This document shows positions 8,937 through 46,360 of a stretch of 64,000 nucleotides of DNA, one piece after another. The DNA comes from Candidatus Saccharimonadota bacterium (GTDB lineage: Bacteria > Patescibacteriota > Saccharimonadia > Saccharimonadales > SZUA-47), in NCBI GenBank assembly GCA_043727115.1, contig JAYSZA010000043.1, positions 975-64,974 on the forward strand. Reading direction: 5' to 3'. Made by a program: the position numbers and the translations under genes. The notes under the pieces are model-generated. The model did not search any database and was not told the origin of the DNA. It worked only from the letters and a program-made list of their open reading frames with translations. Each line of letters begins with the position of its first letter. The stretch's first letter is position 1.

Positions 8937-11906
8937 ATGAGACGTGAGGTTTGGGTGCTGATAGTCGTATCTATTGTTTATGTTTTTTTTGGTTCCCTCA
9001 CGAAGGCCAGCGCACAGGCTTCTGACCCCCATTTGTGGGATGGCAATATTACCCTTGAACAGTCCAAAACAATTACACCTACCCAAGTGCAAAACAGGCA
9101 CGACTGTCGTTACGTAAACGCTAAAAGTATAAGCTTGAAAACCCCATTTACATATATGTTTGCCACGGTTCCGGTGATGCTGAACCCAACCACCACCACC
9201 ATAGGCAATAGATGCATTATTGATAACCAAAACGGATATTTTACCAACGAGTTTCTACAAGGTAGTGGGGATAGCTATCTGGCTTCGTATTACTTTGGTG
9301 ATAGTACAGACAAAATGTATGATTTAGCTCCAATGCTATCAGGCAATTATTGGATTGAGCCAGCCTCAAATAGCAACACTGTATTGTTTTTGGTCAAAAA
9401 TGCTTTTACGGACAAAACCTATTCAGTTAATACGCAGAACGATATTGGTGATGCCCGGCCCGGCATTAGGAGCAATAAGCTAACCTGGGAATTTGGCAAC
9501 CTACAACCAGAAACCTGGAGAGACAAGGACGGCGTAGTTTTCAAAATCGACGAGCACGTGTTTTCACCGAACGGGCAATTCATGGCCATTCATTACAAAT
9601 CAACAATCGCGAAAGTGAATTTGCGCAACATGGAAATGATGCCTGTCGCCTACGACACCAGCTTAAAAGGCAGCGAACTTGCGATAAGCAATGACGGCCG
9701 TTATGTTGCACAGCTCAAGTCTAGTAAATTGTTTGTTACAGATACATATGGGTGTGAAACAGTCTACAATTCAGACTCCTGGGATATAATTTCTGGACAG
9801 TTGTCCTATCCGGGCTGCAAACAGAGTCAAGACATTATCCCCGGGCTTGTTAGTGGAGGATTAATTAGCTCTGGAAAATTCTACAAAAGACCGTACTTTT
9901 CACCAGATAGTAAAAAGCTGAATATTGCTGTCGGCACTAGGCGGACGGACATCAATACCGGTGGTTCAATGATTCCCTTGGCCTTCAACTGGCAAGAGGT
10001 CGTATTGACAGCCAATAATCACGTCAGTAATGTGCAGGGATATTTAGCAATGGGCGATAGTTTTTCGAGCGGCGAGGGGGACTTGCAGGGCGGAACTTGG
10101 TATGAACCAGGGACCGACGAACAGGGAAACAAAGACACTTTTGAAGGACGCAATCTGTGCCATTTGTCGCGTCGGAGTTACCCGTATCTTATCGCAAAAG
10201 AACTGGGGTATTTGTCGGGTGATGCATCCGAACCCACGACGCCTCTGGATAATGACTTGTTCCACTCAGTAGCGTGTAGTGGGGCAGTTATACATAATAT
10301 CGTAGGTACTACTAACGAAGATAACTTTGACCATGAAAACTCATCAAACCAGTACAGGAATGATTTTCTCGGTAGTTTAGTTCGGTGGCAGCCCGGACGG
10401 ATAAAACAACTTGATGCACTAGATTCGTTCGTATTTGGAGGCTATTCAGTCTCAGAGCCTAAACCAGAAGTCATTACACTAGGAATAGGCGGTAATGATG
10501 GAGGATTTGGCGATATCGTTAAATCATGCACCCTTCCTGGAACATGTAAGTACGCAGTCGAGCAATCGATTGACCTGAGCAACCTAGCCATTGGGCTTAT
10601 GAAAATAAAACCAAAATTAGTAGACACATACAAAAAAATAAAGCAAACTAGCCCAGAATCAAGAATATACGTCCACGGCTATCCAATATTTGTATCTGAT
10701 AGAGTAGGTGATTTGAGTGATAGTTTAGACGGTGGAACTTGTAGGGCAAATGTACGCTTGGACTTTCAAGAACGCCGACTTGTAGTAGAGGGCATTAAGT
10801 ATATGAATGAAATAGTACGAGCGGCGGCAAGTGAAGCAGGGGTATTCTACGTGGATATAGAGGATATACTTGAGGGGACAAATTTATGTAGTGGGCATAA
10901 TCCAGGGGACATTACTGTTAACGGTGTGACTGCCGGAAACGATATCGATTTTAGTCTGTGTCTCTTCAGGACGGGCTGTATTGGTAGTGAAAGCTTCCAT
11001 CCGAATCAATTAGCGCACAGATTATATAAGGAAAGAGTATTATCCTACACCGGTAATCTATCCGAACCAATGCCGCCGGTCGTATTAACAAGTATCCCGG
11101 CTCCGGATGATTTCTTTGGATCAACTGCAAGTAGTCAAGCGGGAGTGCACAATAACGGGGGCAATTTCACCATTGTCGTGCCCGAGCCCAAGCCGTTTTT
11201 GAGTGGCAGTGAACAAGGCAGTAAGATTTTACAAGAAGGCTTATTGCCGGGCTCTATATTGCGTGTTGAACTACAATCAACCCCAATAACTATCGCGGAT
11301 TTCACAGTTCCAGCGGACGGTGTAGTTAACCAACCTATAGAATTGCAATCTGATTCTGAGCCTGGAGCGCACGAACTTCATATATTTGGGGTGGACAATT
11401 TCGGCACAGCTTTTGATTATTACGAGCCAATCCTAATCGCTTTTAGTGAAACCGATTTCGATGGCGACGGAATAACAGATGATGTTGATAGCTGCATCAC
11501 TGTATTCGATAGCTTTGTAGACGTGGACCAAGACGGAATTGATGATGTCTGTGACGGTGAAATAGTCATCACACCTCCAGAACCAGAAGTGATAATCGTT
11601 CCTCCGGAGGAAATAATTGTTGAAGACCCAATCACCGAAGAAGAAACTTCACCAGAAACACCGACTCCACAAGTACTGGACCGTGAAAAAGGTGAGCCAA
11701 ACCCAGAAACTGTAGCAGGTGATGAAGAAACGGTTCCGCAAGTACTCGGTGCCTCAACTAGCTCCGATAATACACCATTAGAATCCCAGTCAGTGCTTGG
11801 AGCTGCTGCAGACCTAGCTAGCACAGGCAAGCCCGCGATAGTAACCTTTTTCGTGGGTATAACATTCGTTATTATAGGAATCGTGTTATATAAACACCAA
11901 AAATAA
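8937..11906 (+). CDS. large cell-surface protein: signal peptide + PD40-like beta-propeller repeats + SGNH/GDSL hydrolase domain + Asp-rich Ca-binding (TSP3-like) repeats + Pro/Glu stalk + LAxTG sorting signal
   Basis: 989 aa. N-terminal signal peptide MRREVWVLIVVSIVYVFFGSLTKASAQA. Repeated SPNGQF/SNDGRY/SPDSKK propeller-like motifs. A GDSFSSGEG block sits near 10049-10078, with GGNDGG and FHPN.LAH blocks downstream (SGNH). DFDGDGITDDVDSCITVFDSFVDVDQDGIDDVCDG follows. The C-terminus LASTG (11814-11828) plus hydrophobic helix plus KHQK resembles a sortase (class E LAxTG) substrate. Confidence 0.75.
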   Translation: MRREVWVLIVVSIVYVFFGSLTKASAQASDPHLWDGNITLEQSKTITPTQVQNRHDCRYVNAKSISLKTPFTYMFATVPVMLNPTTTTIGNRCIIDNQNGYFTNEFLQGSGDSYLASYYFGDSTDKMYDLAPMLSGNYWIEPASNSNTVLFLVKNAFTDKTYSVNTQNDIGDARPGIRSNKLTWEFGNLQPETWRDKDGVVFKIDEHVFSPNGQFMAIHYKSTIAKVNLRNMEMMPVAYDTSLKGSELAISNDGRYVAQLKSSKLFVTDTYGCETVYNSDSWDIISGQLSYPGCKQSQDIIPGLVSGGLISSGKFYKRPYFSPDSKKLNIAVGTRRTDINTGGSMIPLAFNWQEVVLTANNHVSNVQGYLAMGDSFSSGEGDLQGGTWYEPGTDEQGNKDTFEGRNLCHLSRRSYPYLIAKELGYLSGDASEPTTPLDNDLFHSVACSGAVIHNIVGTTNEDNFDHENSSNQYRNDFLGSLVRWQPGRIKQLDALDSFVFGGYSVSEPKPEVITLGIGGNDGGFGDIVKSCTLPGTCKYAVEQSIDLSNLAIGLMKIKPKLVDTYKKIKQTSPESRIYVHGYPIFVSDRVGDLSDSLDGGTCRANVRLDFQERRLVVEGIKYMNEIVRAAASEAGVFYVDIEDILEGTNLCSGHNPGDITVNGVTAGNDIDFSLCLFRTGCIGSESFHPNQLAHRLYKERVLSYTGNLSEPMPPVVLTSIPAPDDFFGSTASSQAGVHNNGGNFTIVVPEPKPFLSGSEQGSKILQEGLLPGSILRVELQSTPITIADFTVPADGVVNQPIELQSDSEPGAHELHIFGVDNFGTAFDYYEPILIAFSETDFDGDGITDDVDSCITVFDSFVDVDQDGIDDVCDGEIVITPPEPEVIIVPPEEIIVEDPITEEETSPETPTPQVLDREKGEPNPETVAGDEETVPQVLGASTSSDNTPLESQSVLGAAADLASTGKPAIVTFFVGITFVIIGIVLYKHQK

Positions 11907-13302: not shown

Positions 13303-14583
13303 CTATCCGAGGATTTTGTTGTATATTTCTAGGGTTTGGGCGGCCATTCGGCGCCAAGAAAATCTTTTGGCGTTTTCGTAGCCTTTTTCTATAAGTTTTT
13401 TTCGCAGAGGCTCGTTGGATATGACCTCGTCGATTTTTGCTGCCATTTCCTGAATATCAAGCGGGTTAAAATAAACCGCTGCATCACCATGAACTTCAGG
13501 CAGGCAAGTTGCATCACTGCTGACTACCGGACAGCCGTGAACCATAGCCTCTAGACCCGGTAAACCAAAGCCTTCACTGAGCGATGGGAATACATAGGCT
13601 CGGGCATTTTGGTAATACCACTTCAGTTCTTCGTCAGGAATAAAACCAGTGAAAATTATATCTTCAAAACAAGGCTGTTTATGGCTCGACTCACCCAAAA
13701 TCCTGCTGTCTTCAGGAGACTTTTTCAGTGACGAGATAAATGACTTTTCCGACGAAGAGGTATCTTTAGATACATCTGAGGAGGAAAGGCTTTTAGATTG
13801 TTCTGAAAAATCTTCTGAGGCGGTAGGTATTTTAGGTGTGTTGCGCCTTGCCCATCGCTCTAATGATTTGCTGTGATGTTCTCTTTTGCCGATTAAAACT
13901 AGCTTTAAGTCCGCGTGTTGTTCTTTCAGTAAACAAAATGCACTGATTAGTCGCTCCAAGTTTTTGTGTGGGAATGCGCTGCCGGTATACATGATGAACT
14001 TTTCTGGTGGGTTTTCCGGTGTGTGGGCTTTGCCGGGAAGTGGCGGTTCACTAGATTCCAAGGTAACTGTTGTTTTGCGGTTGGTGAATAAATGGTATTT
14101 GTTAACCGCATCTGCAACATATTGAGTAGGTACTAGGATGTGTTTTGCACGGCGGTGCGCTGACCATAGCAAGAATCGGTATCCTCGCATGCGCAGGGCA
14201 TGTAACCAGCCCGGAAGACGCCCGGCACGGACAAATTTGAGCATGGTTAGGTCGTGTGTGAATGTCGTCTGCTTCTTGAAGTAGAAAATTGGCTGTTGAG
14301 GTGTAAGTGTAAAATGAACCAAATCCGCCCTTAATCGGTACAGTTGCCAGGCATATAAGACCTGGTTAATCGGATTGAAACTAAAGTTACCAAACCTTGT
14401 ATGTTTAACCACGAAGTTTTTGTTGGTAGGCATCCAATCATCTTTTGGTTCTACTAGAATTGTGTAGTGGTGGTCATTATCAATCTCTTGCAAATGCTCC
14501 AGTAATCTTGCGACAGGACGTCCCGTGCTGGCTCTACGTATACGTGCATCTATGACTATGTGTTTCTTTGGAGGCTTTGACAT
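13303..14583 (-). CDS. glycosyltransferase family 1/GT4-like with Ser-rich low-complexity insertion
   Basis: 426 aa. The C-terminal domain carries FTGFIPDEELKWYYQNARAYVFPSLSEGFGLPGLEAMVHGCPVV (EX7E-type GT-B motif). An unusual ~50-aa insertion, SEDFSEQSKSLSSSDVSKDTSSSEKSFISSLKKSPEDS, lies between the two Rossmann halves. Confidence 0.75.
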   Translation of the reverse strand: MSKPPKKHIVIDARIRRASTGRPVARLLEHLQEIDNDHHYTILVEPKDDWMPTNKNFVVKHTRFGNFSFNPINQVLYAWQLYRLRADLVHFTLTPQQPIFYFKKQTTFTHDLTMLKFVRAGRLPGWLHALRMRGYRFLLWSAHRRAKHILVPTQYVADAVNKYHLFTNRKTTVTLESSEPPLPGKAHTPENPPEKFIMYTGSAFPHKNLERLISAFCLLKEQHADLKLVLIGKREHHSKSLERWARRNTPKIPTASEDFSEQSKSLSSSDVSKDTSSSEKSFISSLKKSPEDSRILGESSHKQPCFEDIIFTGFIPDEELKWYYQNARAYVFPSLSEGFGLPGLEAMVHGCPVVSSDATCLPEVHGDAAVYFNPLDIQEMAAKIDEVISNEPLRKKLIEKGYENAKRFSWRRMAAQTLEIYNKILG

Positions 14584-14617
14584 GAGCTCATTATACCTCT
14601 TAATTTTTTGTCAGTAT

Positions 14618-14643
14618 CTACCCTATATGTGACAATAGGGTAG
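14618..14643 (+). promoter_or_regulatory. inverted repeat CTACCCTAT-N8-ATAGGGTAG abutting the start codon of the 14644 gene
   Basis: Arms of 9 bp. The downstream arm ends one nt before the ATG and contains the only SD-like AGGG. This could be an operator or a translational-control hairpin. Confidence 0.4.
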
Positions 14644-15018
14644 ATGAATAATTTTCAAAACGGTGTGACTTCTAGTGACTTAGTACCGCAGTCCTTCAAA
14701 AACTCTAATCAAAACGTCAGTTTTCAGAAAACCTATAGCGTATCTGGCACACAATCAAACAGCGCAAATCAACTACTCTATTCTGCTAGCTCACCAGGAG
14801 TTTTAACCGTAGATGATGGCTCTAACTCCCAAGTATTGGGTTTGTCTAATACTGTGGCAAACACAAGCTCATCGAGTATCACTCAGAATTCAAATAACTA
14901 TATTCCAGTAGCCCTGGTTTTTTTGGTTATCGCAGCTACTTTAAGCAACTATTTCTTTAAACGCTACAAAAGCATTCCAGTAGCAGCCGAACAAGAGCAA
15001 TCTGATGACGAAGAGTAG
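14644..15018 (+). CDS. small Ser/Asn/Thr-rich C-terminally anchored membrane protein
   Basis: 124 aa. About 95 aa of low-complexity S/T/N/Q-rich sequence precede a single TM segment (IPVALVFLVIAATLSNYFF) and a KRYK...acidic tail. The gene overlaps the downstream Wzy_C gene by 14 nt. Confidence 0.5.
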   Translation: MNNFQNGVTSSDLVPQSFKNSNQNVSFQKTYSVSGTQSNSANQLLYSASSPGVLTVDDGSNSQVLGLSNTVANTSSSSITQNSNNYIPVALVFLVIAATLSNYFFKRYKSIPVAAEQEQSDDEE

Positions 15019-16348
15019 CACAGACCGAATTTCTCGTCTTCTGTTCGTTCTGTCGATTATCCTTGTTGTCTATATGCCACTTCACGTCTTCATAGCGCAG
15101 TCCGCCAGCTTGCTAACTGGGGGCATAGAGGTGTGGAAGGCGGCAAAGGATTTATTAATCGTCATTCTTGTTCCAGTTTTATTATTTCTGAGCTATAGAA
15201 GGGGACTTCTCCACAACAAAACCTTTCGTTGGCTGATGATTTTGGGCGGACTATACACGTTACTGCACGGTTTATTCGTTATATTCGACGGAAACGACGA
15301 TACGTATTCAGCAATTGTTGGGAGCGTCTACAATACAAGGCTACTCGGCTATCTACTGCTTGGCTATATTGTAGGTTCAGCAAAAGAAGGGGAAAAGTAC
15401 CTGCGCTATTTACTCACAGCAACGGTGATAATCGCAAGCGCGGTAGCGTTGTTTGGTGTGTTGCAGTACTTTTTGCCATCAGATTTCCTGACGCATGTCG
15501 GGTATAGCCTGGACAGGGGGGTGAAACCACTCTTTTTCATCGACGATAAGCCCGATTTGCCTAGAGTAATGAGCACAATCAAAGACCCTAACTCGCTGGG
15601 TGCATACTTAATTTTGCCGATGTTATTGACTGGCTACGCTTTATTTAAAAAATCTGTGAATGAAGCAATATTTGCACGTCCATTCCGCAGGGAAGTGCTA
15701 GGAGTAATGTTAGCTTTACAGTTTGGTGCACTGACACTAACATTTTCACGCGGTGCGTTTCTAGGACTTATATTCAGTACACTTACTTTACTTTGTATAG
15801 CGAAAGGGAAGCAAATACTGCTGATAGCAAAAAGATTTTGGTATATTTTGCTCGGCACTACTCTGATTTTTATTAGTTTGTTCGTAGTATTACAAGATAC
15901 ATATTTGGTCCAAAATGTAATTTTTCATGCTGATGAATCTACGGTTCTTGAAGACCCAAATGAGCTGAGAGTTACTTTCTTCCAGGAAACCTTAGACAAG
16001 GTTATAGACGAGCCTCTAGGTTCCGGTCCAGGGACTGCAGGGCTGGTCGCCATAAATAACCCAAAAGGCGGCGTACTGACAGAGAATTACTACCTCCAGA
16101 TAGCTTACGAGGTTGGCTGGGCAGGTTTTCTGTTTTTTGCCACAATTCTAGGTGTTCTAGCAGTAAATTTGTACAAAATGCGCAAAAATGCCGTAGCGGT
16201 GGTCCTGCTAAGTAGCCTTGTTGGTTATTTGTTCTACAGCCTACTCATTCATCTATGGTCAAACGAAGCCCTAGCCCTGCAATGGTGGCTACTTTGCGGA
16301 GCTGCTATTGGCTATTTTGCGATGCGACCGAATGACAAAAAACTCTAG
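15005..16348 (+). CDS. O-antigen ligase/polymerase family (Wzy_C) membrane protein
   Basis: 447 aa with at least 10 TM segments. It carries the signature ENYYLQIAYEVGWAGFLFF (the H/N-x2-L-x4-E-x-G-x2-G pattern) and FSRGAFLGLIFSTL, typical of WaaL/Wzy/PglL-type enzymes. Confidence 0.7.
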   Translation: MTKSSTDRISRLLFVLSIILVVYMPLHVFIAQSASLLTGGIEVWKAAKDLLIVILVPVLLFLSYRRGLLHNKTFRWLMILGGLYTLLHGLFVIFDGNDDTYSAIVGSVYNTRLLGYLLLGYIVGSAKEGEKYLRYLLTATVIIASAVALFGVLQYFLPSDFLTHVGYSLDRGVKPLFFIDDKPDLPRVMSTIKDPNSLGAYLILPMLLTGYALFKKSVNEAIFARPFRREVLGVMLALQFGALTLTFSRGAFLGLIFSTLTLLCIAKGKQILLIAKRFWYILLGTTLIFISLFVVLQDTYLVQNVIFHADESTVLEDPNELRVTFFQETLDKVIDEPLGSGPGTAGLVAINNPKGGVLTENYYLQIAYEVGWAGFLFFATILGVLAVNLYKMRKNAVAVVLLSSLVGYLFYSLLIHLWSNEALALQWWLLCGAAIGYFAMRPNDKKL

Positions 16349-16355
16349 ACTAGAA

Positions 16356-16787
16356 TCATCTCTCTTCTACTTCTGGATCTTTCTCGCCCCAAATAAAATA
16401 CTTGGTCCAAACAAAGTTCCAGAATAGTGCCAGAGCTGAACTGACAACCAATGCGATAGTGTAATCAAAATGCAGAACTCTGACACAAAAGCTGACCAGT
16501 AGAGCCCCGCCTATAATCGCCACCCAGCTAGTTGCGTGAAATTCTACTAAGTAATTTGAGAGTGTTTTATTCTGTTTTCGCGATTTATTTTTGTAGGTCC
16601 AGTTGTGATGCATGGCAAAATTATGAAACAGCGCAACCTCGGAAGCCAGTAGCTGAGCAATGAATATGTGTATACCCATCTGTTTGTAAAACAGACTTAA
16701 AAGCGCGTAGTTAATGATGAAACCCGCGGTTCCAACTATGCAAAATCTAATAAAATCTATCGATACTAACTTTTTAGCTAATTTCAT
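16356..16787 (-). CDS. GtrA-like small membrane protein (polyprenyl-phosphate sugar flippase family)
   Basis: 143 aa, 4 TM. FIRFCIVGTAGFIINYALLSLF...HNFAMHHNWTYK matches the GtrA family pattern. Confidence 0.75.
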   Translation of the reverse strand: MKLAKKLVSIDFIRFCIVGTAGFIINYALLSLFYKQMGIHIFIAQLLASEVALFHNFAMHHNWTYKNKSRKQNKTLSNYLVEFHATSWVAIIGGALLVSFCVRVLHFDYTIALVVSSALALFWNFVWTKYFIWGEKDPEVEER

Positions 16788-16845
16788 ACTTATCTTTAAT
16801 TCTAGCTCATGCTAGCATTAAGCAAGAACAAAAGGGAAAAATCAC

Positions 16846-17568
16846 GTGGCCAAAACCAAGAAATTATCTATCGTCATACCTTGTTATAACGAAAAACCGA
16901 CTATAGAAAAACTATTCAAAGAAGTCCAAGACGTGAATCTGGGGACCACAAGCAAAGAAATCATTATTGTCGACGATGGCTCCAAAGACGGAACTCGAGA
17001 TATTCTAAAAAAATTAAAAAAGGCCAACCCAGAAATCAAAGTATTGTTGCAAGAAAAAAATCAGGGTAAAGGTGCCGCTCTGAAACGAGGATTTCTAGAA
17101 TCTACCGGCGATGTTTTGATTGTTCAAGATGCTGATTTAGAGTATGACCCACAAGAATACATCAGGCTGCTCTACCCAATTGAGCGTGGTCATGCAGATG
17201 TAGTCTACGGCTCTAGATTTGTCGGGGGCGAACCGCATAGGATTATTTACTATCGCAACCAAGTCGCTAACAAGTTTCTAACAACACTATCCAATATATT
17301 CACTGGGCTAAACCTGACAGACATGGAAACATGCTACAAAATGATGAACGGAAATTTGGCGCGTGAGCTTGCTGCTGATTTACAGTCTGACCGATTCGGG
17401 TTTGAGCCGGAAATCACAGCACGTATAGCCAAAAAAAATGTGAGAGTCTACGAAATTGGGATTAGTTATTATGGCCGTAGCAAAGAAGAGGGCAAGAAAA
17501 TTGGTTACAAAGACGGCCTGAAAGCAATCTGGGAAATTATCCGATTTAACGTGTTTGTGGGGAAGTAA
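16846..17568 (+). CDS. GT2 glycosyltransferase, DPM1/GtrB-like polyprenyl-phosphate sugar synthase
   Basis: 240 aa. LSIVIPCYNE...IIIVDDGSKDGT...VQDADLEYDP (DxD) are the GT-A motifs. It has no C-terminal TM segment, which is DPM1-like. Confidence 0.8.
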   Translation: MAKTKKLSIVIPCYNEKPTIEKLFKEVQDVNLGTTSKEIIIVDDGSKDGTRDILKKLKKANPEIKVLLQEKNQGKGAALKRGFLESTGDVLIVQDADLEYDPQEYIRLLYPIERGHADVVYGSRFVGGEPHRIIYYRNQVANKFLTTLSNIFTGLNLTDMETCYKMMNGNLARELAADLQSDRFGFEPEITARIAKKNVRVYEIGISYYGRSKEEGKKIGYKDGLKAIWEIIRFNVFVGK

Positions 17569-17569
17569 T

Positions 17570-19360
17570 ATGGCAAAAAAGCAGGCGGTAAAAAAACAGT
17601 CATTGTCTGAAAAATTCAAGCTCCTGCTCAAAAAATATGGTATCGGAACAGCCATTATACTTTTCGTAACACTGTTATATTTCGCGCCTCTACTCAACAA
17701 ACTAGATAGCTACATCGAAGGCGGCGACTCTATGTTCAACGCTTGGACGCTGGCTCGGAATCACAACTGCTTGAAAGGTGATTGTGACAACTATATTGAC
17801 GGAAATATTTACTACCCAAACAAAGACACGATGCTCTACTCAGAGACTCAGCTCTCGACAGGACTCCTGACATTGCCGCTTCATTACATTAACGACAATC
17901 CAATATTCAGCTATAACGTCTGGAAGATTTTCAGTACGTTTTTGAGCGGCTGGTTCATGTATTTATTGGTCAAAAAAATCAGCAAGGGTCACGAGATAGT
18001 GTCGGTTACGTCAGGACTGATATTTGCATTTTCACCATTCAAAATGTCGGCACTTGGTCATTTGCAAAACCTGAGCATATTTTATCTGCCCTTAATTGTG
18101 CTACTGATATTGTGCTACTTAGAAAAGCAGAAAAGAGGATATCTAATTGGCCTGCTTGCGTCGCTTATATTACTGTTCTACGCTTCGTGGTATCAGATGT
18201 TTTTTGCCTTGGGAGCCTTGGGCGTAATGCTCCTCGTGATAGGAGTTATTAGGCTGTCATCTTGGAGGAATATTCTCGTCATCAGCTCGGTAGTCATTAT
18301 TGCTGTGCTTTCTACCTTACCACTCGCAAGACAATACACTCGTTTCTCTAAGGAGAATGATGCAGGATTCACCATTGGCGCTCAGCCTAGTTATGCATCA
18401 AGCGTTGCAGACTACTTTATTCCGCACATCGGTACCGCTGAAGGCTGGCTATACGACAAAGTCGCACCAACTAACGCTCGCCGTATTCCATACAACCTGG
18501 ACAGCATCTCCTACCATGGTGCTGTATTGTACATGGTTGCTCTGGCGATAATTATAATTTTGTTTAGAAAACGTAAAGCCAGCAAAGAACATAGCCAACA
18601 ATATAAATGGGCAGTGGTATGGCTTGCGGTTGGGCTCGTTGGTTTGTTGTTTTCTCTGGGTCCACTCCTAAAGATTGGTGGTAGCTATATTTACGCCACT
18701 CTAAATAGTGGCGTAGGTTTGAGTATGCCACTGCCATATATTTTGCTAGATTTTGCTTTGCCCCAGATTCAGTTTATACGTGCAGTGGGGCGCTGGAGCA
18801 TACTTTTATTGTTTGCGTTATGCGTAGCGCTAGCGTATCTTCCTCGTGTTGCAGACGCCACTGCAAGCCTGAAGAAAAGGAAAAGTATAGTTTATGGGGC
18901 AATAATTATTTTATTTATTTTTGAGCTTGCGCCACTGCATTTTCACTACATGTCGAATCGACCACATGCCTATGATATTAAAATTCCGGCTGTCTATACT
19001 CATATCAAAAATATCCCACAGGTAGATAATCTGCTGGTTTTGTATGCAGACCAGGACTATCCTAATCCGGAACTCGCTTTTGCGCGTATGGAGACTGTAA
19101 TGTGGGCAGGCTATCACAACAAAAATATCTTTAACGGCTATAGCGGCTACACGCCACCAAACTACGAAGAGGATTACGCTGATTTCCAAGATTTACGCCT
19201 CGATGATATAGAAAAAATGAAATCAAAAAAACTGGACTATGTGCTTATTGATAAACAACTATCCACAACCAACCCAGAGCTAGCAGATACCGCTAAGACG
19301 CTTTTCTATGAGGTAACTTATGAAGATGCAAGATACCTACTGATGAAAATCAGTAAATAG
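17570..19360 (+). CDS. polytopic membrane protein, putative GT-C-fold glycosyltransferase
   Basis: About 597 aa from ATG 17570; the ORF track start at 17555 overlaps the preceding gene. Many TM helices plus a large C-terminal extracytoplasmic domain. Its position after the GtrA/GtrB-like pair matches the classic three-component glycosylation layout. Confidence 0.5.
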   Translation: MAKKQAVKKQSLSEKFKLLLKKYGIGTAIILFVTLLYFAPLLNKLDSYIEGGDSMFNAWTLARNHNCLKGDCDNYIDGNIYYPNKDTMLYSETQLSTGLLTLPLHYINDNPIFSYNVWKIFSTFLSGWFMYLLVKKISKGHEIVSVTSGLIFAFSPFKMSALGHLQNLSIFYLPLIVLLILCYLEKQKRGYLIGLLASLILLFYASWYQMFFALGALGVMLLVIGVIRLSSWRNILVISSVVIIAVLSTLPLARQYTRFSKENDAGFTIGAQPSYASSVADYFIPHIGTAEGWLYDKVAPTNARRIPYNLDSISYHGAVLYMVALAIIIILFRKRKASKEHSQQYKWAVVWLAVGLVGLLFSLGPLLKIGGSYIYATLNSGVGLSMPLPYILLDFALPQIQFIRAVGRWSILLLFALCVALAYLPRVADATASLKKRKSIVYGAIIILFIFELAPLHFHYMSNRPHAYDIKIPAVYTHIKNIPQVDNLLVLYADQDYPNPELAFARMETVMWAGYHNKNIFNGYSGYTPPNYEEDYADFQDLRLDDIEKMKSKKLDYVLIDKQLSTTNPELADTAKTLFYEVTYEDARYLLMKISK

Positions 19361-19365: not shown

Positions 19366-20379
19366 TTACTTCCAAAAACGGAGCTTTTTCAGGAGTGAAC
19401 GAAGCCTGTGCAATCTGTAGGCATTAGGCGGTAAATCATAGGTGATGATAGATTTAATGTAATCAGTGGATACTTTTCTAGACTTTTGAATTTTTCGGCG
19501 TTCAACTAGTTTTTTTGGTAAATATAAATTAGTGATAAATAAACCTTTAAATACAGGCACTAGCTTACCTCTCATCAAAGACGATAGCACTATTGAACTG
19601 TAGGCTAGTAAGAATCTAGGCCAGATTGTCGTCATTAGACGTAGAGGAACATTTTTCAAGAAAAGCCAGGGCAGGTTCTTAATAGTCATGTAGGTGGTTA
19701 GGCCAGGAACTTTGCCACTCGAAGCACCCACTTTATGATAGGCGACTGCCTTTGGGCTGTAAGCTACTTTCCAGCCCGCTAGTTGCGCGCGGAAGCTGAT
19801 ATCTACGTCCTCATAGTATGCAAAGAAATCTTCGTCAAATAGACCAATTTGTTTTAGCATTTCTATACGGTATACACTGGCACCACCAGTTGCTCCGAAA
19901 ACTTCTTGCCCAATGTCATATTGCCCCGAATCTACGTCATTTCTGCCTCTTGGATACGCTAGCCCCCAAGAAGTGTATTGGTCGCCAGTTGAATCTATCG
20001 TGCCGTCCGTTTTTAATAATTTACCGGTGGCTATCCCCACCTTCTCACTGCTCATCTGAGAATTTAACTCTTCGAGCCAGCTTGGTTCTGGGGTCGCATC
20101 GTTATTTATCAGCGCTACAAATTCATAGTCATTATCTGCAACATAACGAATGCCTGTGTTTACTCCACCCGCGAAGCCTTTGTTCACGTTGTTTTTCAGT
20201 AAAACAATCTCTGGATGATTCTGTTTGACAATAGATACAAAGTTATCTGTAGAATTATTATCTACAGCGATGATATCATGCCCAGTAGTCTGCTTTTGTA
20301 GGGCAGCGATACAGCTCAGAGAATCTTTTTCTCCATTCCAATTAAGCACAACGACTGCAATGTTAGATTGTTTATTCAT
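19366..20379 (-). CDS. GT2 family glycosyltransferase (rhamnosyltransferase-like)
   Basis: Start taken at MNKQSNIAVVVLNWNG (20379). GT-A motifs: IIAVDNNSTDN, NKGFAGGVNTGI, INNDATPEPSW. Confidence 0.8.
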   Translation of the reverse strand: MNKQSNIAVVVLNWNGEKDSLSCIAALQKQTTGHDIIAVDNNSTDNFVSIVKQNHPEIVLLKNNVNKGFAGGVNTGIRYVADNDYEFVALINNDATPEPSWLEELNSQMSSEKVGIATGKLLKTDGTIDSTGDQYTSWGLAYPRGRNDVDSGQYDIGQEVFGATGGASVYRIEMLKQIGLFDEDFFAYYEDVDISFRAQLAGWKVAYSPKAVAYHKVGASSGKVPGLTTYMTIKNLPWLFLKNVPLRLMTTIWPRFLLAYSSIVLSSLMRGKLVPVFKGLFITNLYLPKKLVERRKIQKSRKVSTDYIKSIITYDLPPNAYRLHRLRSLLKKLRFWK

Positions 20380-20412
20380 GGGCAACTCATCTATAATGAT
20401 ACAAGACTTTTC

Positions 20413-21213
20413 ATGAAACATATCTATAGCAAACAAAACAGAGCACTTCTAGCAGAACTAGTACGAACCGACTTTAAGCTACGCTATCAAGGTTCGGTTC
20501 TTGGCTACGCATGGTCGTTACTCAGACCGCTATTTATGTTTGCCATTCTATATCTTGTGTTTGCGGTTGTTTTTAAAGTGGGAAAAGACATACCTAGCTT
20601 TCCGATCTATCTATTGCTCGGTATCGTTTTGTGGAACTTTTTTCAGGAAATGACACAACAGAGTCTTGGATCGATTGTGGGTCGGGGTGATTTGATCAGA
20701 AAGATTAGGATTCCTAGATGGATGATCATCGTATCGGCAAGTGTTGGTGCTTTAATCAACCTAAGCCTGAACCTAATTGTTGTGCTCGTTATCGCGTTAA
20801 TTAGCGGCATGGATTTGTTGGTTACCAGTGTTCTGTTGCCATTATTTATTATCGAAATATACATATTTGCACTTGGATTAGGACTCCTGCTATCAGCACT
20901 TTTTGTTAAGTATAGGGATGTAAGCTACATATGGGACGTTTTGCTACAGGCAGGTTTTTACGCTACGCCGATCCTTTATCCAGTAAGTTTGATATCTAAC
21001 GTTACTGCTCAGAAAATATTATTTATTAATCCAATGGCTCAGGCAATTCAAGGCGCCCGTAACGTTTTTGTAACACCCGAAGCAGTAACCATAAATGATG
21101 TTTGGCATAATCAGTGGGCGTTTTTGCTGCCACTTACTATTGTGCTTGTTTTCTTGATCGTTGGCACGCTCTATTTCAGAAGAGAAGCTAAAGATTTTGC
21201 GGAGAACCTATAA
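20413..21213 (+). CDS. ABC-2 type polysaccharide exporter permease (Wzm/TagG-like)
   Basis: Start at MKHIYSK. The ABC-2 signature region ELVRTDFKLRYQGSVLGYAWSLLRPL is followed by 6 TM segments. Located directly upstream of the Wzt-like ATPase. Confidence 0.85.
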   Translation: MKHIYSKQNRALLAELVRTDFKLRYQGSVLGYAWSLLRPLFMFAILYLVFAVVFKVGKDIPSFPIYLLLGIVLWNFFQEMTQQSLGSIVGRGDLIRKIRIPRWMIIVSASVGALINLSLNLIVVLVIALISGMDLLVTSVLLPLFIIEIYIFALGLGLLLSALFVKYRDVSYIWDVLLQAGFYATPILYPVSLISNVTAQKILFINPMAQAIQGARNVFVTPEAVTINDVWHNQWAFLLPLTIVLVFLIVGTLYFRREAKDFAENL

Positions 21214-22410
21214 ATGAATAGTCGAAACGAAATTGCAATAAAAATCTCGCACGTCAGCAAATCATTTAAGTTGCCCCACGAAAAGAATACCTCTGTCAAG
21301 AGTTTCGTAGTAAATCCGTTCAAGAAGAGAACGTATGAAAAACAGGAAGTTTTGAAAGATATTGATTTTGAAATCAAAAAAGGTGATTTTTTTGGAATAG
21401 TTGGCCGTAATGGCAGCGGCAAAAGTACACTCCTAAAACTGCTAGCGGGTATATATTCTCCCGACTCAGGACACATACAGGTTAACGGCAAACTTACTCC
21501 ATTTATTGAGCTAGGTGTAGGCTTTAACCCAGAGCTAACTGGTAGAGAAAATGTTTTCCTAAATGGTGCGCTACTTGGTTTTAATCGTAAAGAAATGCTA
21601 GCGATGTACGATGAAATTGTTGAATTTGCAGAAATTGAAAAATTTATGGATCAAAAACTTAAAAATTATTCATCAGGTATGCAGGTTCGTTTGGCGTTTT
21701 CAATTGCTATCAGAGCTGAAAGTGACATACTAGTACTCGATGAAGTATTGGCAGTAGGTGATGCTAACTTTCAAAAAAAATGCTATGACGTGTTTAAACG
21801 CTATAAAACCCAAGGTAAGACTGTGGTTCTTGTTACTCATGATATGGGTGCTGTTGAACAGTTCTGCAATAAGGCAGTTCTGATTGATGAGGGCCAGATT
21901 AAAGTCAGTGGTTTGCCGTACAACGTTACTAAAAGTTACAACAAGGCTAACATTGAAGAGCAAGATAAAGTTCAAGACGATAAAATTAGAAAAAGGAACA
22001 ACAAGAAGGTTTTTATCGAAAAAGTATGGATTGAAAAAAACGGAAAAGAAACAGTTGCTTTATCAAACGAAAACCCTATTGATATAAAAATAAAAGTCAT
22101 AGCCAATGTCGACATTAAGCATCCTGTGTTTGGAATAACAATTCTTGATCAGACAGGAAGACCACTATTCGCCACCAATACGTTAGTGAAAGAAATCCAT
22201 CACAAACTAATAAAAGATAAATTTTATACAATAAATTTTCATATAAAGAACACACTTTCAGACGGCAATTACTATGTTGTGCCAGCAGTTACAGATGAGA
22301 TTAGTGAGGAAAAATATGACTCAATCGACGAAGGTCATCTTTTCTCTATTTCTGGGTGGGAGTTCCCGGCATTTGTGTTGCAGCCCGACTATTCAATCAC
22401 TATTAAGTAG
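21214..22410 (+). CDS. ABC transporter ATP-binding protein (Wzt/TagH-like) with C-terminal carbohydrate-binding-like domain
   Basis: Walker A GRNGSGKST, signature YSSGMQVRLAF, Walker B ILVLDE. About 150 aa of extra beta-rich C-terminal domain, as in O-antigen Wzt proteins. Confidence 0.85.
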   Translation: MNSRNEIAIKISHVSKSFKLPHEKNTSVKSFVVNPFKKRTYEKQEVLKDIDFEIKKGDFFGIVGRNGSGKSTLLKLLAGIYSPDSGHIQVNGKLTPFIELGVGFNPELTGRENVFLNGALLGFNRKEMLAMYDEIVEFAEIEKFMDQKLKNYSSGMQVRLAFSIAIRAESDILVLDEVLAVGDANFQKKCYDVFKRYKTQGKTVVLVTHDMGAVEQFCNKAVLIDEGQIKVSGLPYNVTKSYNKANIEEQDKVQDDKIRKRNNKKVFIEKVWIEKNGKETVALSNENPIDIKIKVIANVDIKHPVFGITILDQTGRPLFATNTLVKEIHHKLIKDKFYTINFHIKNTLSDGNYYVVPAVTDEISEEKYDSIDEGHLFSISGWEFPAFVLQPDYSITIK

Positions 22411-38229: not shown

Positions 38230-39087
38230 TTACACTAGATTCATTAGATATTCGCCGTAACCCGATTTCACGAGTGGTTCAGCAATTTTCTGTAACTGTT
38301 CTTGGTCAATTAATCCCTGTGTGTAGGCAATTTTCTCCGGACTACCAATTATTTGCCCAGTTCTTTTTTGGATAACACGAACATAATCAGTAGCATCGCT
38401 AAGGCTATCAATAGTTCCTGTATCCAGCCATACATCGCCATCATCCAGTGTTGTTACTTTTAGTTTTCCACGCTTTAAGTATTCTTCGTTAACTGCGGTA
38501 ATCTCTAGTTCGCCACGTTCACTCGGCTTGATATTTTTAGCGATTTCAATTACGTCATTATCATAGAAATATAGCCCCACAACAGCGTAATTAGATTTAG
38601 GGTTTGTCGGTTTTTCTTCTATAGATTTTGCTTTCAAATTTTCATCAAATTCTACTACACCATAACGTTCAGGGTCTGAAACCTGATAGGCAAATACGGT
38701 GCCACCATCTGGATCCGTGCAGGACTTTAGTGATTCATCGAGTTCATTGCCGTGGAATATGTTATCTCCAAGAACAAGAGCTACTTTGTCGTTACCGATA
38801 AAATCTTCACCGATAATGAAAGCTTGAGCGAGACCATCTGGAGATGGCTGTACAGCGTAGCTAAGACTGATGCCAAAATCAGAGCCATCGCCGAGTAATC
38901 GCTTGAATTGATCTTGCTCGTGTGGAGTCGTGATGATTAAAATATCACGAATTCCTGCTTGCATAAGTGTGCCAAGCGGATAATAAATCATAGGCTTGTC
39001 ATATATGGGGATTAGCTGCTTAGATATACCTTTGGTAATAGGATATAAACGTGTGCCTGAACCACCGGCTAGTATAATGCCTTTCAA
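38230..39087 (-). CDS. rmlA: glucose-1-phosphate thymidylyltransferase
   Basis: [38 protein letters not shown] is a canonical RmlA N-terminus. Confidence 0.95.
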
Positions 39088-39186
39088 AATTTTCTCCTTA
39101 TATTCAATTACAGTCTAACACCCTGTAATATCATTGTCATCGTATCCTTCACAACATATCAATATAATTTTGTTACAATCTATAGC

Positions 39187-41916
39187 ATGACCAACAAACT
39201 TACGCTTAGAATAATTTCAGGAGTGTTCATCTCTAGTATTTTTATAGCTTTACTATACGTAAGTGCAGCACAGGCTGCCACATGCACGATCACTGTTTTA
39301 AATACGAATACATCAGGGGCAGGTTCGTTCACTCAGGCACTAAACGATGCCAACGGATCTTCAAATATGGATGTTATCTGTTTTAACATTCCAGGGAGTG
39401 GTGTGAAAACCATAAACCTAACAGCACAGTTAGGTATATCTCAGCCAGTAGAGATTGATGGAACGACTCAGCCGGGATATTCAGGCGCACCATTGATAGA
39501 ATTATACGGTGGAAGTGCAAACGGTCTAGTTGTATCCTCTGGTGGGAATATCATCAGAGCAATAGCAGTAAATGGGTATGCCGCTGATGGGTTATTGCTT
39601 CAAGGCCCTGGCGGCAATACCGTTGTTGGTAGCTACTTTGGGTTGGGCCCCAACGGGATAAGCGATCGAGGTAATGGTGCAAGCGGCATAGGGATTTTAT
39701 CACCAAATAATATTATTGGTGGCTCTACTTCTACGGACAGGAATATTATTTCCGGTAACGGTGGCAACGGACTCGTTATTGGTGGAGCTGACGCCTCTGG
39801 AAATGTTATTAAGGGTAATTACTTTGGTACAAATGCAGCTGGTACAGCATCGGTTCCGAACAGTGGGGACGGGTTACTAATCAATGGTTCGTCGGGTAAT
39901 ACAGTTGGAGGCACGGATTCTGTTAACCCAACATCTTCATGTGTAGGTGCCTGTAACCTCTTCTCTGGTAATGGCGCAAACGGCGTAGGTATATGGCATT
40001 CTGGTGCATCTAGCAATACAGTAGTTGGTAACTATATAGGCGTAAAAGTTGACGGTCTAAGTGCACTACCCAATGGAGATATAGGATTAGAAATTCAAGA
40101 TGCATCGGGAAATACAGTCGGAGGCGTAACGGTAAATGAGCGTAATCTAATATCTGGTAATTTTGGAGCGGGGGTGTCAATTACGGGTATACCGAACGGA
40201 ATCGTTACTCAAAACAACATTATAAAAGGTAATTATATCGGTGTTAACAAACTTGGTAACTCTGCAATAAAAAATCATAAAATGGGAGTTAATATTGGCA
40301 CTCCTGCTGGTGGTAGTAACGCGGCAAAAAACAATCTTATAGGGGGTACTGACGGAGTGAGCCTTGGGGGTTCCTGTACTGGTGCTTGCAATGTTATTGC
40401 TGGCAACGGATGGAACGGAATTTATATAAGTGGACTGGACGGTGGCGACAACCAAGTACAAGGCAATTTTATTGGCGTGGGGGCAAGCGGAGGTTGGACA
40501 ATACCAAATTTGCTGGATGGCATAGGTATTGTTAACTCACCCAATAATAAATTCGGAGGCCCTATAAACAGCGCTCGCAATCTTATTTCTGGCAATGGCG
40601 GTTATGGTATCGCAATTGTCGGAAGTTATTCTACCGGTACAAGAATAGAGCGGAACTATATTGGTATCGCCACAGACTCTAATCCGATGCCTAATCAAAA
40701 GTCGGGAGTTGGAGTTGAGTCCGCTGTCGATACTGCAATGTTGACGAATTCTATTTATGGAAATGGGCAACTAGGGATAGATTTAGCAATAAATGGTATT
40801 ACTGCGAACGATGGCGGGGATGCGGACAGTGGCCCTAACAGGCTACAGAACTATCCAGTTTTATCATATGCATACTCAGCAGATGGCAACACAACGGTTT
40901 CGGGTATGTTAAATAGTAACGGAACTACCACTTACACAGTGCAATTCTTCAAAAGCCCATCATGTAATGGTGGTCAGTTTGCGGGATATGGTCAAGGCCA
41001 TACTTACATAGGTTCAAAAGTCGTCTCCACTGACGCAACTGGCAATACATCTTTCACAGCGGCGTTTGCTGGGCTAACAGAGAGCGGGTATGCAGTCACG
41101 GCAACAGCTACAAAGATGTATAACGGGTCTTTATATGAAACTTCGGAGTTTTCTAGATGTGTGCATATTCCGAGACAACATCCTGATGGGGCTGTGATTA
41201 CACCCGCAGGCAGCCCAAATCTATTCATGATTGAAAATGGAAAAACTAGAAAAATAGGGTCAGTAGAAGTATTGAGGAGCCACAACATAACCTCCCAAGA
41301 GATTAAGACAGCAACAACAAGCGACACGACATTTCCTGGAGGCAACGGCCTTTACTTTAGGGAGGGTACTGTCTTGAAGGGAAGTAGCCCAGATATATAT
41401 TTTATAGATCAGATTGGTCCCAATTCATACCAAAAACGCAAACTAACCTCGGGGGCAGCATTTAATGCACTAGGCTATAGCGCGTCAGATGTAATAACTG
41501 TACCGGATTCAGCGCTAGGTCTATCTTCCGGCTCATCAATGAGCACGTCTGCTTATCATCCAGATGGTACTTTAGTAAAAAGTCCGTCCGGAACAGTGTA
41601 TCTGATTATGGATGGGAAGAAGCGTCTCATAGGCTCACCAGGAGTCTTTGTATCGCATCGGTTTAGGGCTGTTGATATTAAATGGGCAACAGGCGGAGAT
41701 TTAGCCAGGTCATCTGGTGGAAATCTAGGTTATCGGGAAGGCGCATTAGTAAAGGGTTCTTCATCGACAATATATATAATTGATGATGATTCTGGGGTAA
41801 TCAAAAAAAGAAAAATAACGTCATCTAGCGCATTCGTAGAGCTTGGCTACTCCATTAATGAAGTAATTTCTATCCCGAATAATGAGTTACCACTTGCGAA
41901 CGGTGCTAATATATAG
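39187..41916 (+). CDS. secreted parallel beta-helix repeat protein with 4 C-terminal copies of the shared ~60-aa repeat
   Basis: 909 aa, with a signal peptide. There are dozens of PbH1-type turns (NxIxGNxxxGIxI / GGxxNxIxGNYIG). The C-terminus from ~41149 holds four repeats [HR]xxG[AT]L[IV]KxxxxxxIY[LFI]Ixx..KKRxIxSxxxFxxxGY. Confidence 0.8.
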   Translation: MTNKLTLRIISGVFISSIFIALLYVSAAQAATCTITVLNTNTSGAGSFTQALNDANGSSNMDVICFNIPGSGVKTINLTAQLGISQPVEIDGTTQPGYSGAPLIELYGGSANGLVVSSGGNIIRAIAVNGYAADGLLLQGPGGNTVVGSYFGLGPNGISDRGNGASGIGILSPNNIIGGSTSTDRNIISGNGGNGLVIGGADASGNVIKGNYFGTNAAGTASVPNSGDGLLINGSSGNTVGGTDSVNPTSSCVGACNLFSGNGANGVGIWHSGASSNTVVGNYIGVKVDGLSALPNGDIGLEIQDASGNTVGGVTVNERNLISGNFGAGVSITGIPNGIVTQNNIIKGNYIGVNKLGNSAIKNHKMGVNIGTPAGGSNAAKNNLIGGTDGVSLGGSCTGACNVIAGNGWNGIYISGLDGGDNQVQGNFIGVGASGGWTIPNLLDGIGIVNSPNNKFGGPINSARNLISGNGGYGIAIVGSYSTGTRIERNYIGIATDSNPMPNQKSGVGVESAVDTAMLTNSIYGNGQLGIDLAINGITANDGGDADSGPNRLQNYPVLSYAYSADGNTTVSGMLNSNGTTTYTVQFFKSPSCNGGQFAGYGQGHTYIGSKVVSTDATGNTSFTAAFAGLTESGYAVTATATKMYNGSLYETSEFSRCVHIPRQHPDGAVITPAGSPNLFMIENGKTRKIGSVEVLRSHNITSQEIKTATTSDTTFPGGNGLYFREGTVLKGSSPDIYFIDQIGPNSYQKRKLTSGAAFNALGYSASDVITVPDSALGLSSGSSMSTSAYHPDGTLVKSPSGTVYLIMDGKKRLIGSPGVFVSHRFRAVDIKWATGGDLARSSGGNLGYREGALVKGSSSTIYIIDDDSGVIKKRKITSSSAFVELGYSINEVISIPNNELPLANGANI

Positions 41917-41928
41917 GTAGGAGGTGTT

Positions 41929-42867: not shown

Positions 42868-42878
42868 ATTAATAATAG

Positions 42879-44743: not shown

Positions 44744-44746
44744 AGT

Positions 44747-45319: not shown

Positions 45320-45322
45320 AAT

Positions 45323-46360
<1,038 letters not shown>

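Follow-up and report, generated by a model that had tools for sequence, protein, structure and literature searches.

A small membrane protein encoded in overlap with a Wzy_C-superfamily glycan ligase-like protein in Saccharibacteria: a candidate acceptor or partner

Background

To what acceptor would a Wzy_C-type enzyme of Saccharibacteria transfer its glycan, and what could be the role of a small Ser/Thr-rich membrane protein whose gene runs into the gene of this enzyme? Saccharibacteria spend their lives attached to other bacteria, and little is known of the chemistry of their surfaces; in a recent study of saccharibacterial pili, the glycosylation processes of these bacteria were termed 'unexplored' (PMC11623550). 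The question is raised by a locus within a 64,000-nucleotide stretch of a Candidatus Saccharimonadota genome (GenBank contig JAYSZA010000043.1, positions 975 to 64,974; hereafter, the window), which includes two genes on the same strand:

14644..15018, + strand: gene for a small single-pass membrane protein, 124 amino acids (aa)
15005..16348, + strand: gene for a Wzy_C-superfamily glycan ligase-like protein, 447 aa, 12 predicted transmembrane (TM) helices

A preliminary description of the window proposed that the two genes encode a candidate pair for protein O-glycosylation, preceded by a hairpin that would occlude a ribosome-binding site. The reading that we tentatively favor, with somewhat less than even confidence, is that the locus represents the end of an envelope glycan pathway with export by an ATP-binding cassette (ABC) transporter, and combines a ligase of the WaaL/TacL/WsaB type with a small acceptor or acceptor-presenting partner and a leaderless promoter.

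Results and discussion

The Wzy_C protein and its family

The open reading frame (ORF) coordinates bear out the arrangement reported previously, that is, two ORFs of 124 and 447 aa that overlap by 14 nucleotides (nt). In a public gene call (P0001), the identical Wzy_C protein is 424 aa long and starts at Met24; the alignment of homologs demonstrates the conservation of a hydrophobic N-terminal extension of matching length (LFxxSLxLxxYMPLHVF), and therefore the ATG at 15005 is the better start. The Wzy_C signature noted previously is confirmed as well: the 447-aa protein contains ENYYLQIAYEVGWAGFLFF, and its residues 235-379 match the Pfam family Wzy_C (PF04932) with a score of 45.9 bits, compared to the cut-off of 31.7.

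The protein is a member of a Saccharibacteria-wide family: it has 860 homologs, and the named ones among the 120 matches listed all come from Saccharibacteria or an unclassified bacterium. The AlphaFold2 model of the 447-aa protein (mean predicted local distance difference test score, pLDDT, 83.5; predicted template modeling score, pTM, 0.88) consists of 12 helices with two sizeable extracytoplasmic loops. The residues that are invariant in the alignment include Q32, S33, T38 and G39, positions in the loop 154-198, the TFSRG motif (246-250), positions in the loop 297-361 including H308, R322 and E360, and the HLWSNE motif (415-421); R249 and H416 are likewise invariant, in keeping with the conserved Arg and His residues that the Wzy_C superfamily has in a large extracytoplasmic loop before the last helices. 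Both termini are predicted to be cytoplasmic and the invariant residues to reside in the outer loops, with the sidedness derived from the positive-inside rule only.

At E <= 0.01, Pfam gave Wzy_C alone, with neither PglL_A (PF15864) and Wzy_C_2 (PF11846) nor a TPR region detected in the 447-aa protein, and NCBIfam produced only a weak match to HpsL. A search of the PDB sequences with a 15-sequence profile of the family yielded noise only, Foldseek comparison of the model with the PDB returned nothing at E <= 0.001, and hhalign gave no match between the family profile and Escherichia coli WaaL. Placement of this protein with PglL/TfpO over WaaL/TacL is thus unsupported by the domain scans, the PDB sequence search, Foldseek or the WaaL comparison.

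Genomic context: a probable ABC-transporter-dependent glycan pathway

To characterize the neighborhood of the Wzy_C gene, we compared 84 loci, namely 80 genome loci encoding Wzy_C relatives, with labels that are nearly all Saccharibacteria, Saccharimonadales or Patescibacteria, and four metagenome loci (L001-L004). The order GT4 <-> Wzy_C - GT2 - Wzm - Wzt is conserved: a divergent gene for a family 4 glycosyltransferase (GT4) is located upstream of the Wzy_C gene in 78 of the 84 loci, and the downstream genes encode Wzm in 60, Wzt in 56 and an intervening family 2 glycosyltransferase (GT2) in 40 loci. The respective features of the window, together with other genes of the same region, are:

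13303..14583, - strand: GT4 glycosyltransferase, divergent partner of the Wzy_C gene (Pfam; synteny)
16356..19360, both strands: inserted module of a GtrA-like flippase (-), a polyprenyl-phosphate-sugar synthase-like GT2 (+) and a 601-aa protein (+) (Pfam, NCBIfam)
19366..20436, - strand: GT2 glycosyltransferase between Wzy_C and Wzm, conserved core (Pfam; same relative position in 40/84 loci)
20368..22410, + strand: exporter consisting of Wzm (ABC-2 permease) and Wzt (ATPase with the Wzt_C glycan-binding domain) (Pfam; synteny)
38230-39087: rmlA, supply gene of the glycan region (Pfam)
43372-44211: rmlD, supply gene (Pfam)
44747-45319: rmlC, supply gene (Pfam)
45323-46336: rmlB, supply gene (Pfam)
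51683-53128, - strand: WbaP-like initiating phosphoglycosyl transferase (Pfam)
within 38230..53128: phosphoglucomutase, GlmS and one GT4 (Pfam)

From approximately 13 kb to 53 kb, the window consists of a single large cell-envelope glycan region, which further encompasses several GT2 and GT4 genes, a WsaF-like rhamnosyltransferase, a PMT-like protein and two GtrA proteins. The predicted Wzm/Wzt exporter defines an ABC-transporter-dependent glycan pathway. The module inserted between the Wzy_C gene and the conserved GT2-Wzm-Wzt genes is particular to the source genome, with neither GtrA nor the 601-aa protein (at least 9 TM helices, no Pfam match) found at this position in any of the 84 related loci, and resembles an extracytoplasmic glycosylation system of three components.

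When export is ABC-transporter-dependent, synthesis of the polymer is completed in the cytoplasm and does not call for a Wzy polymerase. Given this and the constant linkage with Wzm/Wzt, the Wzy_C protein is best read as the final transferase, a probable ligase of the WaaL/TacL/WsaB kind, rather than a polymerase. Membership in the Wzy_C superfamily and the two extracytoplasmic loops would also be compatible with a Wzy-type repeat-unit polymerase, but, in addition to the considerations above, neither a Wzx-type flippase nor Wzz was detected in the 64-kb window, which makes this possibility extremely unlikely. The preliminary description would have abandoned the pair had the enzyme grouped with the polymerases of ABC-independent pathways; instead, the gene is syntenic with Wzm/Wzt across Saccharibacteria.

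The gene content suggests a pathway in which a rhamnose-type polymer would be started on undecaprenyl phosphate by the WbaP-like enzyme, built in the cytoplasm by the GT2, GT4 and WsaF-like transferases, and exported via Wzm/Wzt; the Wzy_C protein would then take the polymer off its lipid carrier and attach it to an acceptor on the external membrane face. Clusters with these features are present in other monoderm bacteria: the slg clusters of Geobacillus stearothermophilus and Paenibacillus alvei, which encode WsaB and WsfB, respectively, similarly combine rmlACBD, a WbaP-like initiator, WsaF-like rhamnosyltransferases, Wzm/Wzt and a Wzy_C protein for the last step. However, there is no detectable sequence relation between the 447-aa enzyme and WsaB or WsfB beyond the Wzy_C domain, and no S-layer protein was identified in the window. 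WsaB and WsfB are larger than 447 aa, with extra C-terminal parts. In the S-layer glycan cluster of G. stearothermophilus, export by Wzm/Wzt is followed by transfer by WsaB, and the small gene wsaA, to which no function is assigned, is located directly upstream of wsaB (PMC2943079). WsaA is a TPR protein, in contrast to the disordered single-pass membrane protein of the window.

Conservation and distribution of the small gene

Non-conservation of the small ORF would have undermined the proposed pair, and we found that this gene is subject to purifying selection, with the ratio of nonsynonymous to synonymous substitution rates (dN/dS) between the window and the closest relative at 0.12 (dS of 0.96). 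A word-indexed search identified three homologs, with 77, 60 and 54% identity, all in the identical gene order, and a profile search run exhaustively against 1.84 billion representative proteins yielded about 30 clusters, all consisting of proteins of 103-130 aa with end-to-end matches. A spurious ORF is ruled out by the dN/dS value, the indels in multiples of three and the size of the family. Two further candidates for distant members, P0153 and P0155, were discarded as unrelated repeat proteins. The family is uncharacterized: it has no Pfam, NCBIfam or Rfam entry, and a Pfam scan of 31 members gave no significant match, the best recurring one being to sialomucin, with a non-significant E-value of 0.035.

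The family profile detected the small gene in 7 of the 84 loci, in each case directly preceding the Wzy_C gene, with no other occurrence in the 8 kb on either side, and every copy with a readable context occupies this position. The genes are adjacent in these 7 genome loci and in the loci L003, L004, L088 and L085-87, and overlap by 8-20 nt in all of them except for L085-87, in which the order is surface protein, small gene, Wzy_C gene, with a 91-nt gap. In L088, where the identity of the small protein is only about 31-35%, the order is GT4 - small gene - Wzy_C - GT4 - Wzm - Wzt, and by our reading of the sequence, an ATG gives an 11-nt overlap with the Wzy_C gene. The overlap implies that the two proteins are made together. 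When mapped on a neighbor-joining tree of the enzyme, the small gene occurs in a single clade only, of which the most basal member has it as well. In this sub-clade, a gene for a protein of 103-130 aa was placed between a conserved promoter (see below) and the ligase gene, usually overlapping the start of the latter.

Most Saccharibacteria therefore run the Wzy_C enzyme without the small protein, which implies that the enzyme must have another acceptor. Given its presence in only 7 of the 84 loci, the small protein is not a universal acceptor; its role would at most be that of a clade-specific acceptor or of an accessory subunit. Thus, the proposal of an O-glycosylation pair holds up in part: the small gene is conserved and linked to an enzyme that does not appear to be a Wzy polymerase of an ABC-independent pathway, whereas its narrow distribution and the nature of its invariant residues (see below) weaken the case for a substrate.

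The distribution brings up an alternative under which the ligase acts on a membrane glycolipid, in the manner of TacL or WaaL, or in cell-wall attachment, and the small protein is unrelated and merely shares the promoter. Under this scenario, it would be telling that the universally conserved partner of the enzyme is the divergent GT4 (78/84 loci) rather than the small gene (7/84), and that this GT4 shows weak similarity to glycolipid-anchor glycosyltransferases in NCBIfam; the latter matches, however, amount to generic similarity in the C-terminal GT4 part and are far below the family cut-offs. TacL, the lipoteichoic acid ligase of Streptococcus pneumoniae, is a Wzy_C ligase in a monoderm bacterium and demonstrates that such enzymes can use glycolipid acceptors (PMC5727136). 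The enzyme of the window resembles TacL and WaaL, polytopic Wzy_C enzymes of approximately 400-450 aa that transfer a finished polymer linked to undecaprenyl diphosphate to a membrane-anchored acceptor at the outer face; the acceptors of these ligases are glycolipids, and the enzyme of the window shows no significant sequence match to E. coli WaaL or to any solved structure. We know of no small protein partner of TacL or WaaL. The adjacency of the small gene and the Wzy_C gene, in contrast, persists at about 30% identity and in three upstream contexts, with the overlap mostly kept, which argues for a functional link, so that we consider this alternative unlikely.

A probable leaderless promoter rather than a regulatory hairpin

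The preliminary description reported an inverted repeat immediately before the start of the small gene and interpreted it as a hairpin that regulates translation by burying the ribosome-binding site. The repeat is real and longer than previously stated, and it coincides with a predicted promoter:

14608..14613, + strand: -35-like hexamer TTGTCA (promoter scan: TTGTCA-17 nt-GACAAT, with TG before the second hexamer)
14616..14645, no strand: inverted repeat with arms of 11 perfect bp and an 8-nt loop, straddling the -10 element and including the A and T of the start codon
14628..14636, + strand: extended -10 element TGTGACAAT (TGn followed by GACAAT), equivalent to the loop of the repeat and ending 7 nt before the ATG (promoter scan)

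The arms are ATCTACCCTAT (14616-14626) and ATAGGGTAGAT (14635-14645), or 12 bp if a G-U pair is counted. By simple arithmetic, about 0.15 perfect 11-bp repeats with a loop of 3-12 nt are expected per 64 kb; the window contains perfect arms of at least 9 bp at seven distinct sites, so that such repeats are not rare there. The half-site of the palindrome has no extra copies in the window beyond chance.

Comparison of the upstream regions separates the two elements. TGTGACAAT is invariant in six of these (the window, L003, L001, L004, L011 and L088), and is followed by a spacer of 7 variable nt before the ATG (6 nt in L011). The arms, in contrast, are variable, being identical only in the closest relative, L003, and different in L001, L004, L011 and L088. 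We detected no covariation of the arms, with 66.2% of the cells paired compared to 63.8% in shuffled alignments and 157 of 500 shuffles at least as high. The small gene is located directly behind what appears to be a conserved promoter of the Wzy_C family: in 60 loci without the small gene, hexamers that match -10 in at least 5/6 positions are concentrated 6-12 nt ahead of the ATG of the Wzy_C gene. Transcription would proceed from the extended -10 promoter TTGTCA-17-TGTGACAAT, which the repeat overlaps, and start at or next to the ATG, so that the mRNA of the small gene and the Wzy_C gene is predicted to be leaderless.

With such a start, the left arm of the repeat would not be transcribed, and what was taken for a regulatory hairpin is most probably no more than a promoter. 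A hairpin in the 5' untranslated region that buries the ribosome-binding site together with the start codon would draw on the perfect 11-bp stem, which would sequester the AUG, on the predicted stability of the RNA fold (-22.7 kcal/mol, z = -2.5), and on the weak repeats of different sequence that, by eye, flank the same element in L088, L001 and L004. Nevertheless, we consider regulation of this kind very improbable given that the arms are unconserved and pair no better than shuffles, the conserved loop corresponds to an extended -10 element with a -35 hexamer 17 bp upstream and a start at the ATG, the leaderless geometry is family-wide, Rfam gave no match to the repeat, and the Shine-Dalgarno (SD)-like AGGG of the small gene is only 3 nt from the ATG. 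The repeat itself is lineage-specific and may reflect either chance or an operator over the -10 element.

The SD-led genes of the window appear, by eye, to carry GGAG or GAGG several nt further upstream than this AGGG, and an ordinary GGAG(G) precedes the small gene in L006 and L015, where it has other genes upstream. A -10-like hexamer is found 5-9 nt before the start in 18 of 59 window genes, and an SD-like sequence accompanies only 1 of these 18 compared to 24 of the 41 others (Fisher p = 1e-4), which suggests that leaderless mRNAs are widespread in the source lineage of Saccharibacteria. The divergent GT4 gene has a start of the same type (TATAAT + 6 nt + ATG). Other window starts with TATAAT or TACAAT as the -10-like hexamer include, apart from that of 13303-14583 (-), those at 28623, 37261, 39187, 51683-53128 (-) and 59592. 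Common leaderless-type starts matter for the calling of genes and start codons in Saccharibacteria genomes.

The small protein as an acceptor or an accessory subunit

The 86 residues that precede the TM helix of the small protein consist of 31% Ser/Thr and 26% Asn/Gln; the helix (approximately residues 87-110) is followed by KRYK and an acidic tail. The Ser/Thr/Asn/Gln-rich region, the TM helix and the charged tail described previously are thus all present, but the region is not of low complexity given that it contains the strongly conserved linear motifs MNxLQSGxPxSxLxPQxFKN[ST]xQ and LxV...VLGxS. Across the family, Q5, G7, Q16, N20, Q23, L54 and V56 are invariant, P15, Q28, L65 and G66 are conserved in at least 90% of the members, and position 21 is occupied by Ser or Thr in 31 of 31. 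The stretch between VLG and the helix is variable and comprises 9-27 residues, with 36% Ser/Thr and 8% charged residues. In the AlphaFold2 model, only the TM helix is confident, and the 86 N-terminal residues are predicted to be disordered.

The 12 residues before the helix contain, on average, 0.45 Lys/Arg, compared to 2.97 in the 12 residues after it (31 members), which predicts an N-out/C-in topology. Accordingly, the prediction disagrees with the description of this protein as tail-anchored, even though the helix is indeed near the C-terminus. The nearly uncharged N-tail is compatible with translocation without a signal peptide, and the predicted topology would expose the Ser/Thr-rich part at the membrane face on which Wzy_C enzymes act. 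The most likely role of the small protein would be that of a membrane-anchored glycan acceptor or a partner that presents acceptors to the ligase; the active site of the ligase, near the membrane surface, would accommodate either the stalk or the invariant N-[S/T]21-x-Q site.

A substrate role appears plausible. The arrangement can be compared with established systems. In the pilin-TfpO systems (PilA-PilO; Pseudomonas aeruginosa 1244, Acinetobacter), the substrate gene is located immediately upstream of the gene for a Wzy_C O-oligosaccharyltransferase and is co-transcribed with it, and the acceptor of TfpO/PglL is a membrane-anchored protein with a Ser in an exposed flexible segment. PilO and PglL share the Wzy_C domain (PMC2943079). 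The small gene similarly lies upstream of the gene for a Wzy_C-domain enzyme, and its product is predicted to be membrane-anchored and to have a flexible segment with Ser/Thr at the outer face. In contrast to pilins, the small protein lacks the class III signal and the N-terminal helix and has a C-terminal anchor, that is, it is not a pilin; furthermore, unlike PglL/TfpO, the enzyme of the window contains no PglL_A or Wzy_C_2 domain, and its donor would come from an ABC-transporter pathway.

The main rival to the substrate role is that of an accessory or regulatory subunit of the ligase that, via its N-terminal motif and TM helix, tunes acceptor choice, chain length or stability. Invariant Q5, G7, Q16, N20, Q23, L54 and V56 in a disordered region are typical of a binding motif, the stop/start overlap provides for coordinated synthesis, and there is a precedent in WsaA, a 168-aa protein encoded just upstream of the O-oligosaccharyltransferase gene wsaB (PMC2943079); moreover, an enzyme that works without the small protein in most lineages is what would be expected of an optional subunit. 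However, no position of the Wzy_C protein separates the genomes with the small gene from those without it, there being only weak, phylogeny-confounded trends in TM helices 1-4, and the juxtamembrane part of the small protein is variable, Ser/Thr-rich and mucin-like, with a stalk motif common to surface proteins, all of which would be superfluous for a subunit. On balance, we hold a purely accessory role to be doubtful.

Several observations weigh against the pathway with a small acceptor or acceptor-presenting partner that we tentatively favor. The small gene is absent in about 90% of the enzyme-bearing genomes, and its presence is patchy even inside its clade. The invariant residues of the small protein are mainly Gln, Asn, Gly, Leu and Val, not Ser/Thr, and would fit a binding motif no less well than a site of glycosylation. 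That an N-tail of 86 residues is inserted N-out in the absence of a signal peptide is a prediction, as is the transcription start, which is placed by promoter geometry only. Finally, the PMT-like enzyme and the GtrA/GT2/GT-C module could glycosylate Ser/Thr-rich proteins without the Wzy_C enzyme.

The VLGxS stalk and LAxTG surface proteins

The juxtamembrane motif of the small protein recurs in another type of surface protein, of which one is encoded in the window:

8937..11906, + strand: GDSL/SGNH-hydrolase-like secreted surface protein, 989 aa, with C-terminal ETVAGD...QVLGASTS...LASTG followed by a TM helix and KHQK

The C-terminus of this protein (...ETVAGDEETVPQVLGASTSS...LASTG - TM - KHQK) is a predicted LAxTG sortase-type sorting signal, similar to those of class E sortases, that follows a QVLGxS motif. 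The protein also has an N-terminal signal peptide, and such a peptide and an LPXTG-like motif are likewise found in the small proteins of L005 and L010, whereas the small family has neither and thus does not qualify as a sortase substrate. Homologs of the 989-aa protein are encoded less than 8 kb from the Wzy_C gene in 18 of the 84 loci and, in at least 7, between GT4 and Wzy_C. An epibiont could use the 989-aa protein itself as a surface lipase or esterase.

In L005 and L010, 'stalk-only' proteins of 119 and 141 aa, respectively, are encoded directly upstream of, or near, the Wzy_C gene; these consist of a signal peptide, an acidic linker, ETVAG, VLGAST/VLAET, LAxTG and a TM helix. Together with a third protein, from L008, they form a set (L005, 4868-5227; L010, the 141-aa ORF; L008, 308-826) found next to the Wzy_C gene in genomes without the small family, with a signal peptide, an acidic or Ser/Thr linker, one or more VLGxS motifs, LAxTG or a TM helix, and a basic tail.

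The juxtamembrane part of the small protein, that is, VLGxS with the 9-27 Ser/Thr-rich residues, would be a stalk of the same kind as those that precede the LAxTG signals. By hhalign, the segment from VLG to the tail of the small family aligns with the LAxTG stalk module with a probability of 91%, a score that partly reflects hydrophobic composition. In six-frame translations of all loci, VLG[x][S/T/N] precedes a C-terminal TM helix in 13 of its 39 occurrences, and in 11 of these 13, the protein is of the VLGxS-stalk type, with its gene upstream of Wzy_C. The best support, if indirect, for a link of the VLGxS-stalk proteins with the ligase comes from this recurrence, which conserved synteny near the origin could partly account for, given that dnaA, rnpA, yidC and jag are located just upstream. 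A search of a 5.8-billion-protein set with the LAxTG stalk module retrieved 8 short proteins only, a result that says nothing on whether the module is widespread.

A more specific version of the acceptor idea, which we deem rather unlikely, is that the small protein is a proteinaceous membrane anchor to which the ligase would attach the ABC-exported rhamnose-type polymer at Ser/Thr of N-[S/T]21-x-Q or of the VLGxS stalk, with the same stalk marking sortase-anchored surface proteins for glycosylation. A partial parallel comes from GspA-LcpA of Actinomyces oris, where a small sortase-substrate surface protein carries a polysaccharide while membrane-anchored. The 119- and 141-aa LAxTG proteins encoded upstream of Wzy_C in L005 and L010 resemble GspA. 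Unlike the putative transfer considered here, that in A. oris is catalyzed by an LCP phosphotransferase, not a Wzy_C enzyme, and the small protein of the window has neither a signal peptide nor LAxTG.

Implications

The Wzy_C enzyme is a phylum-wide candidate for finishing the main ABC-exported surface glycan. The part of the locus worth an experiment is the small protein family, which offers a concrete candidate for the acceptor or partner that is easy to express and has a defined motif for mutagenesis; the VLGxS stalk, common to sortase-type surface proteins, could serve as a signal for glycosylation or for sorting. If the small protein proves to be an acceptor, protein O-glycosylation of the Wzy_C type would extend to the Candidate Phyla Radiation, and a compact enzyme/acceptor pair would become available for glyco-engineering. 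Should it be a protein anchor, the locus would represent the first protein O-glycosylation system defined in Patescibacteria, in which a protein replaces the glycolipid anchor of lipoteichoic acid or lipopolysaccharide in bacteria that are unable to make their own lipids.

Other features of the region

Interspersed in the glycan region are four genes with products of 312-909 aa that belong to no Pfam family and have signal-anchor-like segments at the N-terminus; these products are candidate secreted or surface proteins:

25595-27991, - strand: signal-anchor-like protein
32840-34360, - strand: signal-anchor-like protein
39187-41916, + strand: signal-anchor-like protein
41929-42867, + strand: signal-anchor-like protein

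The glycan cluster adjoins the replication-origin gene set (recF-like, dnaN, dnaA, rnpA, yidC and jag; 981-8894 of the window), and in the complete Saccharibacteria chromosome L084 (CP025011.1, positions 1-16113), the Wzy_C gene is less than 8 kb from position 1. A 13-bp perfect inverted repeat with a short loop (2033-2062) is located at the 5' end of the recF-like gene (981-2072, - strand).

The GT4-Wzy_C intergenic region is a gene-insertion hotspot, marked by repeated insertions of toxin-antitoxin genes. The PhdYeFM/PIN and MazE/PemK pairs recur in or beside it, specifically, in L001 (729-1369), in L088 (3609-4252 and 5367-5914) and, between GT4 and Wzy_C, in L031, L077, L007, L017 and L034. 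In the window, an ORF on the + strand (12530-13213) encodes an IS200/Y1-transposase-like protein, for which the best NCBIfam match, a weak one, is to REP-associated tyrosine transposase; another 13-bp perfect inverted repeat (CTGTACAAGGAC.../...GTCCTTGTACAG, 12491-12519) is located directly upstream of this ORF, and a similar gene is found upstream of Wzy_C in L008.

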